A DNA stretch of 64,000 nucleotides from positions 23,530 to 87,529 of the forward strand of contig JAADDJ010000016.1 of NCBI GenBank assembly GCA_013153965.1, written 5' to 3'. This document shows, piece after piece, positions 35,993 to 64,000 of the stretch; within the stretch, counting starts at the first letter, position 1, and each line of letters begins with the position of its first letter. This DNA comes from Thermotogota bacterium. GTDB lineage: Bacteria > Hydrothermota > Hydrothermia > LBFQ01. Both the position numbers and the translations under genes were made by a program. A model generated the notes under the pieces. The model saw only the letters and a program-made list of their open reading frames with translations. It ran no database searches and was not told the DNA's origin.

Positions 35993-36925
35993 TTAACTTA
36001 TCCTTTCAACGAAGGAAAACTTGAACGTTATCTCCTGCGGTTTTCCGAAGGGGGTTATACGGACCGTGACGGTGCCGTTCTCCTCATCCACGCTCACGAC
36101 CTTACCCTCCCATCCCTTGAAGGCACCCTCAACGATGCGCACGCGGTCCCCTTCAACGAAGGGCACCTTCCTCTTGCTCTCCTCCTCCTGCTGGCGTATG
36201 AGCTCCTCTATACGCCGGATCTCCTCGTCGGACATCTTCATGTAGGTGGGCTCACCCGTCTCGGGATCGCGGGCCCTTATGGGGCGGGTCTTGGATATGA
36301 TCTGGGTGATCTTGTCTATCACCTTCTGGTCCTCCTCCATCTTTATGAAGAGATAGCCCCGATAGATGGGCTTCTCCACTATCCTCATCTCCTCAATCAC
36401 CTCGTACTGGCCGGGGGCAGGTTTGAGGGCGCTCTTGACAGCCCTGTAGGACATCCCCCAGTTCTTAAACTTCCGCTCCACCTCGGGAAGGTTGCGCTCG
36501 TTGATCCCCAGAATCACCGGTTTGAGACCGGCCTCCTTCAGGAGTCGGAACAGCTCCTCAAGTCTGTACCTATCCACCTTCTCAAACCTGTAGAGATTCC
36601 GCTTGACCTCCGAGTAGGGGTAGGGGAGTTCTACCCCTTCGGGCTTGCCAAGGAAACCCAAGGGATACGAGAGGGTGAATTTGATGAAATCAACGGGCAG
36701 ATTCTCGCCCCAATCCTCAATTATCACATCTACGAGACGGGGTTTGCGCTTACGCTTTATGAATCTGGTCGTACGTATGGTCGGCACGAATACGCTCTCA
36801 ACCTTATCCTCCAGTCCGAGGTCCTTTATCAACTTCTCTATGCGCCTCTTCGTCCGCAGCTCCTGTCCCGAGACGGTCCAGAATACCAGCCAGTTCTTCT
36901 CCCTAACTTCGGGCATGGGCTCCAC
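35993..36925 (-). CDS. nusG: Transcription termination/antitermination factor NusG with ~130-aa insertion in the NGN domain
   Basis: The NGN start is NWLVFWTVSGQE..VESVFVPT, resuming at IYRGYLFIKM. The KOW domain is FVEGDRVRIVEGAFKGWEGKVVSVD. The product is 310 aa, against ~180 aa for standard NusG. Confidence 0.9.
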   Translation of the reverse strand: MEPMPEVREKNWLVFWTVSGQELRTKRRIEKLIKDLGLEDKVESVFVPTIRTTRFIKRKRKPRLVDVIIEDWGENLPVDFIKFTLSYPLGFLGKPEGVELPYPYSEVKRNLYRFEKVDRYRLEELFRLLKEAGLKPVILGINERNLPEVERKFKNWGMSYRAVKSALKPAPGQYEVIEEMRIVEKPIYRGYLFIKMEEDQKVIDKITQIISKTRPIRARDPETGEPTYMKMSDEEIRRIEELIRQQEEESKRKVPFVEGDRVRIVEGAFKGWEGKVVSVDEENGTVTVRITPFGKPQEITFKFSFVERIS

Positions 36926-36928
36926 CTC

Positions 36929-37165
36929 CTATCCACCCAATATGGCCAAGAGGACCTTGGATATGAGCATATCGGAGATCCAGATGTACAGGGTGGTGAA
37001 TAGGGAGATGGCGATCACACCCACCGTTCCGGCTATGAGACTGTTCCAATCGGGCCAAGTCAGACGGCCGAGCTCCTCCTTCATGCCCTCCATGAACTCG
37101 GGGAGGTTGAGGAGAACGTCGGCCAACTTACCGAAGGTCTCCTTCAGGGAGTGAATTACGCTCAT
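36929..37165 (-). CDS. secE: Preprotein translocase subunit SecE
   Basis: LGRLTWPDWNSLIAGTVGVIAISLFTTLYIWISD is a single C-terminal TM. Its position between rpmG and nusG supports the call. Confidence 0.85.
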   Translation of the reverse strand: MSVIHSLKETFGKLADVLLNLPEFMEGMKEELGRLTWPDWNSLIAGTVGVIAISLFTTLYIWISDMLISKVLLAILGG

Positions 37166-37329
37166 ACCCTCGCCTCCTTATGGAGCGTGTGCCTGCGGCA
37201 CCACTTGCAGTATTTACGCAGCTCTATCTTCTTCCTGTTGGTGCGCTGTTTGCTTATCGCATAGTTAAATCTGCCGCACACGGTGCATTTGAGCCCCACC
37301 GTATGCCTCCCTTGGGTCTTCTTGGCCAT
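37162..37329 (-). CDS. rpmG: 50S ribosomal protein L33 (Cys4 zinc-binding form)
   Basis: MAKKTQGRHTVGLKCTVCGRFNY..KYCKWCRRHTLHKE. The track ORF start (37359) would overlap tRNA-Trp, so ATG 37329 is used. Confidence 0.9.
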   Translation of the reverse strand: MAKKTQGRHTVGLKCTVCGRFNYAISKQRTNRKKIELRKYCKWCRRHTLHKEARV

Positions 37330-37332
37330 AAA

Positions 37333-37405
<73 letters not shown>

Positions 37406-37439
37406 ACGCCTCCCTTCGGGGGGGGACTTAGCGGAAGGT

Positions 37440-37468: not shown

Positions 37469-38284
37469 TCAATCCTCATGCACGTCAAACCGGACGAACC
37501 GGCGAACCGTGTAGTCCCCCTGCTCCTTCAGCCACTCGCCGAAGGTCTTCTTGCTGTCCTTCATGTAGGGTTGATCAAGGAGGGTCTTCTCCCTCAGGAA
37601 GGCCTTTATCTTGCCCTCAACTATGCGAGGTATTATGTGCTCGGGCTTACCCTCCTGTCGCACCTGCTCCTCGTATATCTCCCTCTCTTTCTGGAGGATC
37701 TCCTCCGGGAAGTCATCCTTGGAGACGGCTATGGGCTTCATGGCGGTTATCTGCATGGCGGTCTCCTTCGCCACCTCCTCGTTGGGAGGGTAAATCTCCA
37801 CCATCGTTCCCTGCGTGGCTCCCGGATGGATGTATATGTATATCATGCCGTCGTCGGTGGAGAAGTACGCCACCTTCTTTATCTCTATCTTCTCACCGAC
37901 CTTTCCCGAGAGGAGTTTCATCTCCTCCTCAAGGGCCTCGTCCAGAAGCTCCTCAACGCTGTTGGCCTTCTTCTGAAGCTGGACCTGAAGGGCCTTCTCG
38001 CCGAAGGCCTTGAAGTCGTCGGTCCTCGCGACGAAGTCCGTCTCGCAACCCACCTCAACCATGGCTCCCCACTTGAAATTCTCGTCCAGAGCGGAGAATA
38101 TCAACCCCTCCTTGGTGGTTCTGGCCACCTTCTTCTCCGCCTTCGCTATACCCATCTTCTTGAGGATCTCCACGGCCTTATCGGGGTCGTTGTTCGCCTC
38201 CTCCAGAGCCTTCTTCACGTCCATAAGGCCGGCCCCCGTGGCCTCACGAACCATCTTTATAAGTTCCATCGGAACCTTTGCCAT
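37469..38284 (-). CDS. tsf: Elongation factor Ts
   Basis: ELIKMVREATGAGLMDVKKALEEANNDPDKAVEILKK is the UBA-like N-terminus. EVGCETDFVARTDDF is also present. Confidence 0.95.
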   Translation of the reverse strand: MAKVPMELIKMVREATGAGLMDVKKALEEANNDPDKAVEILKKMGIAKAEKKVARTTKEGLIFSALDENFKWGAMVEVGCETDFVARTDDFKAFGEKALQVQLQKKANSVEELLDEALEEEMKLLSGKVGEKIEIKKVAYFSTDDGMIYIYIHPGATQGTMVEIYPPNEEVAKETAMQITAMKPIAVSKDDFPEEILQKEREIYEEQVRQEGKPEHIIPRIVEGKIKAFLREKTLLDQPYMKDSKKTFGEWLKEQGDYTVRRFVRFDVHED

Positions 38285-60439: not shown

Positions 60440-60751
60440 CTACTCCGTTATTATCTTGACCTTTATATCCACGCCCGGAGGCAGGTCTATCTGCGATATC
60501 TTCTCTATGGTCTCCGGCGTGGCATCCCTTATCTCTATCAGGCGGGCGTGCTTTTTCAGCCAGAAGTGCTCCTGCCCTCGCTTGTCTATGTGGGGTCCTC
60601 GGATGACGGCGAATAGGGTCCTCTTGGTCGGAAGGGGGATGGGCCCGGCCACCTTGGCGCCGGTGGCCTTGGCCGTGAATACTATCTCCCGGGCCGTCCT
60701 GTCCAGGACGGCCGGGTCAAAGCTTTTGAGTTTCAAACGTATCTTGTCCAT
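60440..60751 (-). CDS. rpsJ: 30S ribosomal protein S10
   Basis: IRLKLKSFDPAVLDRTAREIV..GPIPLPTKR..IRGPHIDKRGQEHF..HARLIEI. The ATG overlaps the tuf stop by 1 nt (TAATG). Confidence 0.96.
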   Translation of the reverse strand: MDKIRLKLKSFDPAVLDRTAREIVFTAKATGAKVAGPIPLPTKRTLFAVIRGPHIDKRGQEHFWLKKHARLIEIRDATPETIEKISQIDLPPGVDIKVKIITE

Positions 60752-61971
60752 TACTCAAGGATCTCGGTGATCACGCCCGCGCCTACCGTACGGCCACCCT
60801 CACGGATGGCGAAGCGCAGCCCCTTCTCTATGGCTACGGGGTATATCAGCTCCACGTCCATGGTGACGTTGTCGCCGGGCATGGCCATCTCACGGTTGGG
60901 GTCGGCGAACTTGATGGTTCCGGTCACGTCGGTGGTACGGAAGTAGAACTGGGGCCTGTAGCCGTTGAAGAAAGGCGTGGAACGGCCACCCTCCTCCTTC
61001 TTCAGGATATAGACCTCGGCACGGAATTTCTTGTGGGCCTGGATGGAGCCGGGCTTGGCCAGTACCATACCCCTCTCCACCTCGTCCTTGCCTATACCAC
61101 GCAGGAGGGCACCGATGTTGTCTCCGGGGATGGCCTCGTCCAGAATACGACGGAACATCTCTATAGACGTGACCACCGTCTTGAGAGGCTTCTCACGGAA
61201 TCCCACTATCTCCACCTCGTCGCCGGGACGCAGAACGCCACGCTCCACCCTACCGGTGACGACCGTACCGCGACCGGTGATGGAGAATACGTCCTCTATG
61301 GCCATGAGGAAGGGCTTGTCTATCTCGCGCTTGGGCTCGGGCACGTACTCGTCCAAGGCCTCCACGAGCTTGAGGATGGCGCCGGCGCCTATCTCATCGT
61401 CAAAGTCGGAGGGATTCTGCAGAGCCTTGAGGGCGGAGCCCCTTATCACGGGAACCTCGTCGCCGGGATATCCGTACTCGTTGAGGAGATCCCTCACCTC
61501 CATCTCCACCAGCTCCAGCAGGTCGGGGTCATCCACCAGGTCCACCTTGTTGATGAAGACCACTATGGCGGGGACTCCCACCTGGCGGGCCAGCAGGACG
61601 TGCTCGCGGGTCTGAGGCATCACGGAATCAACGGCGGAGACCACCAGTATGGCGCCATCCATCTGGGCGGCACCGGTGATCATGTTCTTGATGTAGTCCG
61701 CGTGCCCGGGACAGTCTATGTGGGCGTAGTGATACTTGTCGGACTCGTACTCAACGTGGGCCACGTTGATCGTCAGGATCTTGGTCTCATCCTTGCGGGC
61801 GATCTTGGCGTCGGCCTTGGCGACCTCGTCGTAGGACTTGAACTCGGCCTGTCCCTTCTGAGCCAGAACGGCCGTTATGGCGGCCGTAAGCGTCGTCTTA
61901 CCATGGTCAATATGACCGATGGTTCCCACGTTCTTGTGGGGCTTCGTCCGTTCAAACTTGGGCTTGGCCAT
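60751..61971 (-). CDS. tuf: Elongation factor Tu (divergent switch I)
   Basis: Motifs [23 protein letters not shown], and domains II/III are near-identical to canonical EF-Tu. It lies in the canonical position upstream of rpsJ. Confidence 0.95.
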
Positions 61972-62121: not shown

Positions 62122-63027
62122 TCATCGGAGGTTGGTCTCCCCCATCACCTCCTCGTACGTCGGGGCGTAAGCGCCCAGTCGGGAGACGGTTATTGAGGCG
62201 GCCTTGGAGGCTATCTCACCAGTCCTCTTCCAATCGTACCCCCGGAGGCGGGCCCATACCACCCAAGCCAGAACCGTGTCGCCGGCTCCGGTTATATCTA
62301 TAACGTCCCTCTTGAGGGCCGGAATGTAGAACTCCCCCTCGTTGGACACGATCCACATTCCCCTATCGCCCATGGTTGAGACCACCGCTCCGACCCCCAG
62401 CCTCTCGTAGGCCCTCTCCGTCGCCTCGCGCACCTCGTCTATATCCTCCAGAGGCATGTTCATGGCCTTCCGCAGCTCGCTCAAGTTGGGTTTGACTATG
62501 TCAAACCCTCCGGACTTCCAGAAGAGGGACTTGGGGTCTATCGCCTTCAGGGAATTGGGGAAATTGTCCTTCACGAAGTCCAGAGTCTCCTCAATCACGG
62601 TCCCCTTGTCGTAGTTGGAGACTATCACCGCGTCGTAGTCCCTTACCCTCACCATATCCAGCAGAGCCAGAGCCTCCTCCCGAAGGAACTTCTCCTCGTA
62701 GTCTATACGCAGGACGTGATGATACTTGGACAGGAGGCGGGTCTTCTTTAGGGTGCGCAGTTTGCTCCTATAGAAGCGGGGGACGATATTCACGCTCTGG
62801 CACAGCAGCTCCACCTCCTCGCCGTCGCTGTCCTCCCCCACTATCCCGTAAAGATACACCTGAACGCCCAGACGGGCCAGATTCAGGGCGACGTTGGCCG
62901 CCCCCCCGGGGAGGAACTTGCTGCTGACGTAGTGGAAGACGGGAACGGGAGCCTCCGGAGATATACGCTCCACCTTTCCGAAGGCGTACTCGTCCAACAT
63001 CACGTCCCCGATAACGGCTATCCTCAT
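62122..63027 (-). CDS. hldA: D-glycero-beta-D-manno-heptose-7-phosphate kinase-like (PfkB family, RfaE domain I type)
   Basis: MRIAVIGDVMLDEYAFGKVERISPEAPVPV..GGAANVALNLARLG and C-terminal DITGAGDTV. No adenylyltransferase domain is attached. Confidence 0.65.
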   Translation of the reverse strand: MRIAVIGDVMLDEYAFGKVERISPEAPVPVFHYVSSKFLPGGAANVALNLARLGVQVYLYGIVGEDSDGEEVELLCQSVNIVPRFYRSKLRTLKKTRLLSKYHHVLRIDYEEKFLREEALALLDMVRVRDYDAVIVSNYDKGTVIEETLDFVKDNFPNSLKAIDPKSLFWKSGGFDIVKPNLSELRKAMNMPLEDIDEVREATERAYERLGVGAVVSTMGDRGMWIVSNEGEFYIPALKRDVIDITGAGDTVLAWVVWARLRGYDWKRTGEIASKAASITVSRLGAYAPTYEEVMGETNLR

Positions 63028-63159: not shown

Positions 63160-64000
63160 CTAAAATGCCCCTTCCCTCCCGCCCTCTATCATCATCCTCC
63201 TGAGGACCTTCGCCCACTCCTCCCTCTCCTCATCCAAGAAGGTGCGAAAGGCGCGGGAGATTGCTATATCCGAGGGAACGTGGAGATAGGGCTTTATGTA
63301 GCGCATGTACTCGGCTATCCTACGCTTCGGGGCCCTGCTGTGGGGGAATATGAGATGGGCGTTCGCCTTCAGGAATTCCAAGCCCACCGTACGATAGAAG
63401 GCCAACATCACGAGGGCCTTTCTCCGTGGGAGCTCAATCTCCTCCACCCCCCGCATCAATCTAAGTCGTCCGGAGAAGGAGAGATAGACCTCCCTCCTCG
63501 CCACCTTGGACATGTACCAAAACAGATACTCAAGACCGGCGAAGTCCCCATTCTCAACCTCCGGACGTTTCGGAGGGCGCTCGGCGAATCTCCTCGCTAT
63601 GCCGTGAAGTACGGTCATGTAGGGTACATCGCCGGGGGGAGCCGGCGATACGTCGGGAAAGTACATCCTCTCGTAGGCTTTGAACATCTCGCCGTAGCGT
63701 CTCAGTCCGAGACTTTCGGCCGCCATGCGCGCTATACGCAGGTCAAAGGGTTTTCCCGAGAGGGCGGCGCCGAGTCCCTTGAAGGCCAGAGCCACCTGGT
63801 ACATACCCCTATCAACTATCCCGTCTATGAGACCGGGAAGTCTCTCGTCTATGACGTACAGCTTCCCCGCGTACAGGTCCCGGAAGGTCGTGAGCCACCG
63901 AACTATGAATTCCTCCCAAGAGGATGAGGGGGTCGGCGGTGGGTAGAATTTGCCCATCACGGTGTGAATCTGGTAGAGTATCCTGTCGCGCACGAAATCC
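63160..64000 (-). CDS. Paralog of 795-1937: hypothetical protein with C-terminal SARP/OmpR-like winged helix (5' end probably beyond window)
   Basis: The C-terminal 130 aa align with 795-1937 (YLFWYMSKVARREVYLSFSGRLRLMRG vs YALWWYVSKRVNRETYLSFAGRLRLMGG). The alignment offset suggests ~100 more N-terminal residues outside the window. The first in-window ATG is at 63993. Confidence 0.55.
   Translation of the reverse strand, partial: DFVRDRILYQIHTVMGKFYPPPTPSSSWEEFIVRWLTTFRDLYAGKLYVIDERLPGLIDGIVDRGMYQVALAFKGLGAALSGKPFDLRIARMAAESLGLRRYGEMFKAYERMYFPDVSPAPPGDVPYMTVLHGIARRFAERPPKRPEVENGDFAGLEYLFWYMSKVARREVYLSFSGRLRLMRGVEEIELPRRKALVMLAFYRTVGLEFLKANAHLIFPHSRAPKRRIAEYMRYIKPYLHVPSDIAISRAFRTFLDEEREEWAKVLRRMMIEGGREGAF

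Follow-up and report, generated by a model that had tools for sequence, protein, structure and literature searches.

The 64-kb stretch of contig JAADDJ010000016.1 analysed here (hereafter the window) carries a tuf gene for elongation factor Tu (EF-Tu) directly upstream of rpsJ, as the open reading frame (ORF) and the gene order both indicate and as a first-pass annotation of this DNA had stated. The switch I segment of the encoded protein lacks the APEE..RGITI motif of canonical EF-Tu and is five residues longer. This had been taken for the singular loss of a universal motif; the observation is confirmed by the analyses below, and the interpretation placed on it is partly supported. We consider that the gene very probably encodes a housekeeping EF-Tu with an alternative switch I that is lineage-wide and widely shared, and that this is probably the only EF-Tu of a thermophilic hydrothermal-vent bacterium of the WOR-3/'Caldipriscota' lineage.

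The window protein scored 672 bits against TIGR00485, the NCBIfam EF-Tu equivalog (cutoff 522.4), with residues 1-406 aligned to profile positions 1-394 of 394, and it fell below the cutoffs of the EF-1alpha, SelB, aIF2-gamma and other family profiles (for SelB, 153 bits against 242). Its best PDB matches in HMMER searches were EF-Tu, with E-values between 1e-190 and 1e-170. The GTPase motifs outside switch I are kept, as previously noted ([18 protein letters not shown] and GSAL), namely G1 GHIDHGKTT (residue 19), G3 DCPGH (86), G4 NKVD (141) and G5 GSAL (178), and the precomputed Pfam annotation of a 97%-identical protein (P0001) comprises PF00009, PF03144 and PF03143 (GTP_EFTU, the domain 2 beta-barrel and domain 3). 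An AlphaFold2 model of the window EF-Tu, with a mean predicted local distance difference test score (pLDDT) of 82.6, reached a template modelling (TM) score of 0.88 to the closed GTP-form structures 1EXM, 1EFT and 1TTT and of about 0.55 to GDP forms. Compared with canonical EF-Tu (E. coli TufA/TufB; Thermus 1EFT, 1EXM and 1TTT), the protein has the same three domains (64-70% identity in Foldseek), the same catalytic His, Mg2+/gamma-phosphate Thr and hydrophobic gate, the same tuf-rpsJ order and a TDFV-motif EF-Ts encoded nearby. It differs in a switch I that is longer by five residues and lacks both the A-P-E-E turn and R-G, with the charge of E54 reversed and G59 replaced by Ile, and in having no fusA upstream. 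A SelB, EF-1alpha or tuf3-like identity was rejected on the profile scores, the position in a ribosomal-protein operon and the approximately 80% identity to canonical EF-Tu outside the loop.

HMMER alignments with every solved EF-Tu structure open a five-residue gap in the PDB sequences at switch I, and APEE..RGITI is missing at 61768-61830, in agreement with the first-pass annotation. A PROSITE-like G_TR_1 pattern (D-x(4)-E-x-x-R-G-I-T-I) matches the canonical proteins P0076 and P0040 and does not match the window protein or its variant homologues P0018, P0025 and P0028; such a signature serves for diagnosis and does not define function. When 131 variant and 82 canonical EF-Tu sequences were aligned with MAFFT, the C-terminal half of the loop aligned without gaps, and the extra two or five residues were located N-terminal to it, at the position of canonical Pro53. 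Position by position (E. coli numbering), E54 is replaced by Arg or Lys in 100% of variants, a charge reversal (K60 in the window), E55 by Asp in 100% (D61), R58 by Lys in 100% (K64) and G59 by Ile in types A and B and Thr in type C as defined below (I65). The gate residue I60 becomes Leu, Val or Met (L66), and I62 is Ile or Val (I68). T61, the Thr for Mg2+ and the gamma-phosphate, was correctly said to be kept: it is T67 in the window, present in 100% of variants and invariant across all 131 variant and 82 canonical sequences. The earlier claim that the Arg-Gly and the acidic PEE turn are replaced holds for G59 to I65 and E54 to K60, which are the only radical changes in the C-terminal half of the loop, but it overstates the changes of E55 to D61 and R58 to K64, which, like the remainder, are conservative.

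Beyond the loop, D21, G83 and H84 are invariant in variant and canonical groups alike, and only positions 35 and 165 passed the filter, weakly, as residues that separate the two groups. A partial signal was found for V20I: P-loop position 20 is Ile in 47 of 59 type A and 35 of 40 type C sequences and in 1 of 82 canonical sequences, and is mostly Val in type B. The window likewise has Ile at this gate position in the 213-sequence alignment (I21). Ile at position 20 may co-vary with the replacement of I60 by Leu or Val across the hydrophobic gate, judging from the alignment.

The loop is maintained as protein-coding sequence. Between the window and six relatives, the 21 loop codons show 3-14 synonymous differences: against the closest, the 97%-identical L128 and L063, there are 3 and 7, respectively, with 0 amino-acid changes, and against the 90%-identical Candidatus Caldipriscus gene L127, 10 codons are identical and 11 synonymous, again with 0 amino-acid changes. 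Relatives of 76-80% identity differ by 11-14 synonymous and 4-6 amino-acid changes. Synonymous changes far exceed amino-acid changes in the whole tuf gene also, and the loop is under strong purifying selection in the tuf frame. Separately assembled sequences contain the identical 21-residue segment (overall identity 97% for P0001, L063 and L128, and 90% for L127). Both other reading frames contain stops across 61768-61830, which bears out the first-pass argument against a compensated frameshift. Support for 61760-61840 comes from contigs in independent assemblies of three other hydrothermal-vent metagenomes, which span 61741-61875 at depths of 70-290 and carry substitutions and no indel inside the coding sequence; every indel listed falls before the start codon. 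An exact look-up of the window EF-Tu returned no record in the assembly index, and no RNA-seq runs containing the stretch were found.

The alternative loop extends well beyond this lineage. One genome per GTDB species was scanned for DNA encoding D-[ADE]-[TMI]-K-x-x-T-[IV]-x-x-x-H-[IV]-E-Y, for which about 0.5 matches are expected by chance from the information content of the motif. At least 120 loci matched, and 120 of the 120 listed are EF-Tu genes. Record labels among the loci listed cover about 15 phyla or candidate phyla, including Planctomycetota, Verrucomicrobiota, Acidobacteriota, Gemmatimonadota, Nitrospirota, Myxococcota, Bipolaricaulota and WOR-3. By genomic slot, 35 of the 120 lie in the order rpsL-rpsG-fusA-tuf-rpsJ and 38 in tuf-(rpmG-secE-nusG-rplK)-rplA, which places 73 in a classic tuf slot; the flanks of the other 47 were too short for assignment. 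The first-pass annotation had held RG[IV]TI to be universal in bacterial EF-Tu, and this premise is wrong, since at least 120 EF-Tu loci carry an RD[ADE]TK-x-x-T-[IV] core instead, 73 of 120 of them in classic slots. Among finished sequences, a variant tuf lies after fusA in the complete genome of cultured Sorangium cellulosum So ce26 (L090), in the str/S10 slot of a closed Nitrospira chromosome (L060) and on a closed Planctomycetaceae chromosome (L105).

Three subtypes share the core R-D-[A/D/E]-T-K-h-h-T-[I/V], with Thr61, a hydrophobic residue at Ile60, Lys for Arg58, Asp for Glu55 and a charge-reversed Glu54. Type A ([VI]AKAD.K..R[RK]D[AE]TKILT[VI], five residues longer than canonical) occurs in WOR-3, Acidobacteriota (including Thermoanaerobaculia and Aminicenantes) and Bipolaricaulota/Acetothermia. 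Type B ([VI]AKAS...GRRD[ADE]TKI[LMV]TI, also five residues longer) occurs in Gemmatimonadota, Nitrospirota, Phycisphaerae, Kiritimatiellia, Lentisphaerota, Omnitrophota, Fibrobacterota, Auribacterota and others, and type C (I[AT]KGG..RD[ADE]TK[TV]VTI, two residues longer) in Planctomycetia, Verrucomicrobiota, Myxococcota and Bdellovibrionota. The window segment ([19 protein letters not shown]) fits the type A motif [VI]-A-[KR]-A-D-x-K-x-x-R-[RK]-D-[AE]-T-K-I-L-T-[VI], and its Lys60 and Ile68 are minority residues, each found in 4 of the 59 type A sequences in the alignment set. Type B EF-Tu, found in the str/S10 slot in L060, has the same length as the window protein, the same V-A-K-A start and the same R-R-D-x-T-K-I-L-T-I end, with S-E-S-Q-G rather than D-A-K-[ILM]-[AF] in the middle. 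The planctomycete type C protein, a housekeeping tuf product in classic slots, shares the core, Lys for Arg58, Asp for Glu55 and the loss of Gly59; its loop (I-A-K-G-G-T-V-R-D-A-T-K-T-V-T-I) differs in being longer by two residues only, in having G-G for the Ala/Lys-rich segment and in having T-V, not I-L, before the Thr. Each type has its own representatives at 50% identity (P0121 for A, P0151 and P0221 for B, P0134 for C); representatives at that level are mostly fused, truncated or divergent EF-Tu-like proteins and are unfit for counting.

The EF-Tu of cultured Planctomycetes, Verrucomicrobia, Acidobacteria and Gemmatimonas has long been annotated as ordinary EF-Tu. Jenkins and Fuerst (2001, J Mol Evol 52:405) reportedly described a 'unique 11-amino-acid motif' in Pirellula EF-Tu, which may correspond to AKGGTVRDATK; their study is among the references of PMC3444138. 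Our searches of the open-access literature found no description of the alternative loop class. The window gene is thus an ordinary member of a large, scarcely discussed class already present in databases, and what looked like a one-off loss of a universal motif turns out to be a class feature of many phyla.

Some record labels look inconsistent with the EF-Tu type (L015, L073, L075, L096, L110, L032 and L063, labelled Rhodomicrobiaceae, Saccharibacteria, Anaerolineae/Chloroflexota, Chitinophagaceae or Thermotogota); L063, one of these oddly labelled contigs, encodes a protein 97% identical to the window WOR-3/Caldipriscota protein. Such labels may reflect mis-binning or outdated taxonomy, and the Rhodomicrobiaceae, Chitinophagaceae, Saccharibacteria, Chloroflexota and Thermotogota labels were not relied on. 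The variant tuf can also lie after fusA or before secE-nusG within one genus or phylum (L034 and L042 in Candidatus Saccharicenans; L055, L009 and others in Planctomycetota, a phylum with both type B and type C loops). Two copies of tuf, conceivably of different loop type, may coexist in some genomes.

Within the host lineage, the nearest protein clusters bear the names 'Candidatus Caldipriscus sp.', 'Thermotogota bacterium' (a label of a metagenome-assembled genome) and 'candidate division WOR-3', and NCBI taxonomy places Caldipriscus in Candidatus Caldipriscota. Caldipriscota, Hydrothermota, Stahliibacteriota and WOR-3 have been treated as names for one lineage, from which a first isolate has been reported (PMC12285271). 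The sequencing runs that contain window sequence are hydrothermal-vent metagenomes. The loop longer by five residues is shared by all homologues listed above 78% identity, so that the lineage-wide occurrence raised as a question by the first-pass annotation is borne out by the alignment of orthologues. Canonical EF-Tu matches first appear at approximately 77-78% identity, labelled Aquificae and 'Hydrothermota'; the nearest canonical EF-Tu among the matches listed from 5.8 billion proteins is 77% identical and labelled Aquificae.

The relatives L001 and L004 have the variant gene in the full classic order, rpsL-rpsG-fusA-tuf-rpsJ. The variant locus L004 (protein P0018) and the canonical 'Hydrothermota' locus L129 (protein P0076) share the order rpoB-rpoC-rpsL-rpsG-fusA-tuf-rpsJ...secY, with neighbours that are 74% (RpoC), 93.5% (S12), 82% (S10), 82% (L2) and 88% (L16) identical. 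Their EF-Tu genes (L004:10001-11209 and L129:10001-11203) encode proteins 87-88% identical outside residues 34-72 and 36-41% identical inside. Because they share one locus and approximately 87% identity outside the loop, the canonical and variant WOR-3 EF-Tu are orthologues, not paralogues. On this comparison, a single locus holds one loop form or the other in related organisms, each in place of its counterpart. The L004/L129 pair, taken by itself, presents a pattern like the replacement of the loop alone. In a neighbour-joining tree built with switch I masked, the canonical WOR-3 group nested inside type A groups; this tree covers one protein and a canonical sample chosen for similarity to the query, and the nesting is a hint only. 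This lineage also departs from another near-universal EF-Tu motif: the DGPMPQT loop reads DSVMPQT in the window and also in L004 and L129. The change follows the WOR-3/Hydrothermota lineage with either type of switch I and was rejected as a marker of loop type, being lineage-specific and not loop-linked.

The neighbouring genes are listed in Table 1. After rpsJ, rplC, rplD, rplW and rplB follow on the same strand, with rpsC further on. In the sub-lineage of the window, a PfkB kinase, an asparaginase or a PLD-like gene lies upstream of tuf instead of fusA, which has been lost as the upstream neighbour. The locus had been called a canonical tuf-rpsJ locus, and it is half so, with rpsJ in place downstream and fusA not upstream. 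Many bacteria keep a tuf copy upstream of tRNA-Trp-rpmG-secE-nusG. In the window this slot, where a second tuf often sits, is filled by rpsB-tsf, and the order beyond tsf is tRNA-Trp-rpmG-secE-nusG-rplK-rplA-rplJ-rplL-rpoB-rpoC. The tsf product is, by its sequence, the predicted exchange factor for the window EF-Tu. The NusG encoded here is longer than typical (310 residues against approximately 180), with the Pfam NusG match starting at residue 174 and KOW at 258, implying a large extra N-terminal or inserted region.

Table 1. Genes and EF-Tu sequence features at the tuf locus and the tsf-nusG locus, in window coordinates.
Feature	Position	Strand	Remarks
tuf (EF-Tu)	60751..61971	(-)	406 aa; type A alternative switch I; ORF, profile, PDB and fold matches
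Variant switch I, D48-I68	61768..61830	(-)	[21 protein letters not shown]; 5 aa longer than canonical
P-loop I21 and D22	61906..61911	(-)	E. coli V20 (gate partner) and D21 (proposed monovalent-cation ligand); from alignment
I21	61909-61911	(-)	Ile at gate position 20
Catalytic His90	61702..61704	(-)	E. coli H84, in DCPGH; from alignment
DSVMPQT loop, residues 113-119	61615-61635	(-)	Near-universal form is DGPMPQT
rpsJ (S10)	60440..60751	(-)	Immediately downstream of tuf; starts S10 operon
PfkB-family kinase gene	62122-63027		Upstream of tuf
277-aa ORF	63160-63993	(-)	Upstream of PfkB-family kinase gene; no Pfam match
tsf (EF-Ts)	37469..38284	(-)	ETDFVA motif in translation; PF00889, 199.6 bits
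tRNA-Trp	37332-37406		Downstream of tsf
rpmG	37162-37359		Near tsf
secE	36929-37165		Near tsf
nusG	35993-36925	(-)	310-aa NusG

How such a loop might work can be predicted from what is known of canonical EF-Tu. In the structures of Berchtold (1993) and Voorhees (2010), Val20 and Ile60 are said to form a hydrophobic gate before His84. Switch I is helical in EF-Tu-GTP and adopts beta structure in EF-Tu-GDP; of its residues, Thr61 alone contacts GTP directly, at the gamma-phosphate, and the segment also touches tRNA nucleotides 1-3 and 73-75 (PMC6950810). For the P-loop Asp and the switch I Gly, a role as monovalent-cation ligands has been proposed (PMC4342817, citing Kuhle & Ficner). The structural and kinetic statements that follow are predictions of this kind, as distinct from gene identity, conservation, purifying selection, genomic slot and distribution, which were observed. 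In the window EF-Tu, T67 would supply the single direct switch I contact to Mg2+ and the gamma-phosphate, and L66 would form, with I21 of the P-loop, the hydrophobic gate before the catalytic H90. K64 would stand in for R58 and D61 for E55, and the backbone carbonyl of I65 would take over from that of G59. In canonical EF-Tu, the N-terminal half of switch I is a helix with GTP and a beta-hairpin with GDP, and contacts the tRNA acceptor end. This half would be rebuilt here, with a longer Ala/Lys-rich segment in place of the A-P-E-E turn and with E54 charge-reversed, and the rebuilt loop would still order on GTP and release after loss of inorganic phosphate. We infer ordinary EF-Tu function because T67, L66 together with I21, H90 and D22 are present and K64 and D61 are conservative. 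Indirect indications that the window EF-Tu would perform GTP-dependent aminoacyl-tRNA binding, ribosome-stimulated GTP hydrolysis and EF-Ts-catalysed nucleotide exchange are its conserved catalytic residues and the tsf gene with its ETDFVA motif.

Several observations weigh against a housekeeping EF-Tu of ordinary function. The G59 position is taken by a beta-branched residue and the charge at E54 is reversed, and the kinetics could differ substantially from those of the canonical factor. No PDB chain with the alternative loop was found among solved structures. In the AlphaFold2 model, pLDDT falls below 50 at residues 53-69; the canonical control P0076, modelled on the same alignment, is equally poor at residues 53-65, and because of this the models are uninformative on loop conformation, and only their global GTP-like fold was used. 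As to the locus, fusA is neither adjacent to the window tuf nor present within the 64-kb window, and a distant canonical second tuf may, formally, lie beyond the window and the ten contigs discussed below.

A broader proposal is that bacterial EF-Tu has two deeply conserved switch I architectures, the textbook A-P-E-E-x-x-R-G-I-T-I and an R-D-x-T-K-h-h-T-I form that is longer by two or five residues, reversed in charge at E54 and devoid of Gly59, and that the loop is an exchangeable cassette that flipped between sister lineages at one locus (WOR-3 and 'Hydrothermota'), possibly by recombination and possibly under protease or toxin pressure; we put this forward tentatively, as a possibility with the odds against it. 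Somewhat less likely still is the strictly adaptive version, in which the loop is functionally distinct, not a neutral lineage signature, and moved between lineages as a recombination cassette, being kept for altered sensitivity to abortive-infection proteases, toxins or kinases, or for altered GTPase or EF-Ts kinetics. Canonical switch I is a proven target of such enzymes. Lit cuts canonical EF-Tu between Gly59 and Ile60 (PMC3014915), and the caspase of type IV Thoeris cuts after R45 and R59 (initiator Met counted) and strictly needs Arg at P1 (bioRxiv 10.1101/2024.10.24.620036); the window protein has I65-L66 at the Lit site and K64 at the caspase site. However, the Thoeris caspase is promiscuous, the window loop retains an Arg (R59), and no defence system has been linked to these genomes. 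The discordance between the loop and the rest of the protein in the WOR-3 sister lineages described above (87% identity outside against 36-41% inside) is consistent with transfer of the loop, as are a near-identical type A motif in genomes labelled WOR-3, Acidobacteriota, Aminicenantes and Bipolaricaulota and the interleaving of types B and C within Planctomycetota, Omnitrophota and Bdellovibrionota among the loci listed. Nevertheless, this support is circumstantial, the sampling of the neighbour-joining tree is biased, and strong constraint combined with ancient divergence could yield the same pattern.

We also considered whether the window gene encodes a specialised EF-Tu paralogue that fills a niche in the manner of Streptomyces tuf3 or nematode mitochondrial EF-Tu2, while a canonical tuf elsewhere (for example, after fusA) carries out bulk translation. 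Streptomyces tuf3/actEF-Tu2, nematode mitochondrial EF-Tu1/2 and SelB belong to the EF-Tu/SelB family of translational GTPases and have altered regions (PMC4342817). These divergent paralogues are additional copies, restricted in role and far lower in identity, in contrast to the window tuf, which lies in a ribosomal-protein operon. With fusA missing both from the window and from the regions flanking tuf in the sub-lineage, the classic post-fusA position of tuf lies outside view, and canonical and variant EF-Tu both occur within WOR-3 sensu lato. However, the variant heads the S10 operon here and occupies the full rpsL-rpsG-fusA-tuf-rpsJ slot in relatives, and the canonical WOR-3 form sits in that same slot of a different lineage, as expected of orthologues and not of co-resident copies. 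The TIGR00485 score far above the equivalog cutoff and the gene-wide synonymous excess argue against a specialised copy as well, and no closely related canonical EF-Tu was present among the listed database matches, while many phyla have the variant in a classic slot. A tblastn search found no second translational GTPase in the 64-kb window, and contigs with a Candidatus Caldipriscus EF-Tu showed one single context in ten cases out of ten. The suggestion in the first-pass annotation of looking for a second, canonical tuf is thereby largely answered across the window (where the tufB slot holds tsf) and the ten contigs, short of a closed genome. A paralogue is, on this evidence, very unlikely.

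An assembly or sequencing artefact or a decaying pseudogene, created by a compensated frameshift or a chimeric join, might be suspected from the unusual sequence itself and the unrecorded exact protein, but is effectively refuted, at a probability close to nil, by the intact frame over 406 codons with stops in the alternative frames, the recurrence of the 21 residues in independent assemblies, the indel-free contigs of three other metagenomes and the recurrence of the motif in at least 120 species genomes.

A housekeeping EF-Tu with a widely shared alternative switch I has consequences beyond the window organism. Current knowledge of the helix-to-strand transition, the hydrophobic gate, the proposed Gly59 cation site and cleavage by Lit and Thoeris all comes from canonical proteins. 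PROSITE-style GTP_EFTU annotation, and assumptions about EF-Tu as a drug or toxin target, would fail for Planctomycetota, Verrucomicrobiota, Acidobacteriota, Nitrospirota and Gemmatimonadota, five phyla that are large and environmentally dominant. The canonical and variant WOR-3 proteins, as approximately 87%-identical orthologues, constitute a natural loop-swap experiment. If EF-Tu does have two switch I architectures, the alternative form would have a distinct on-state structure and distinct kinetics.

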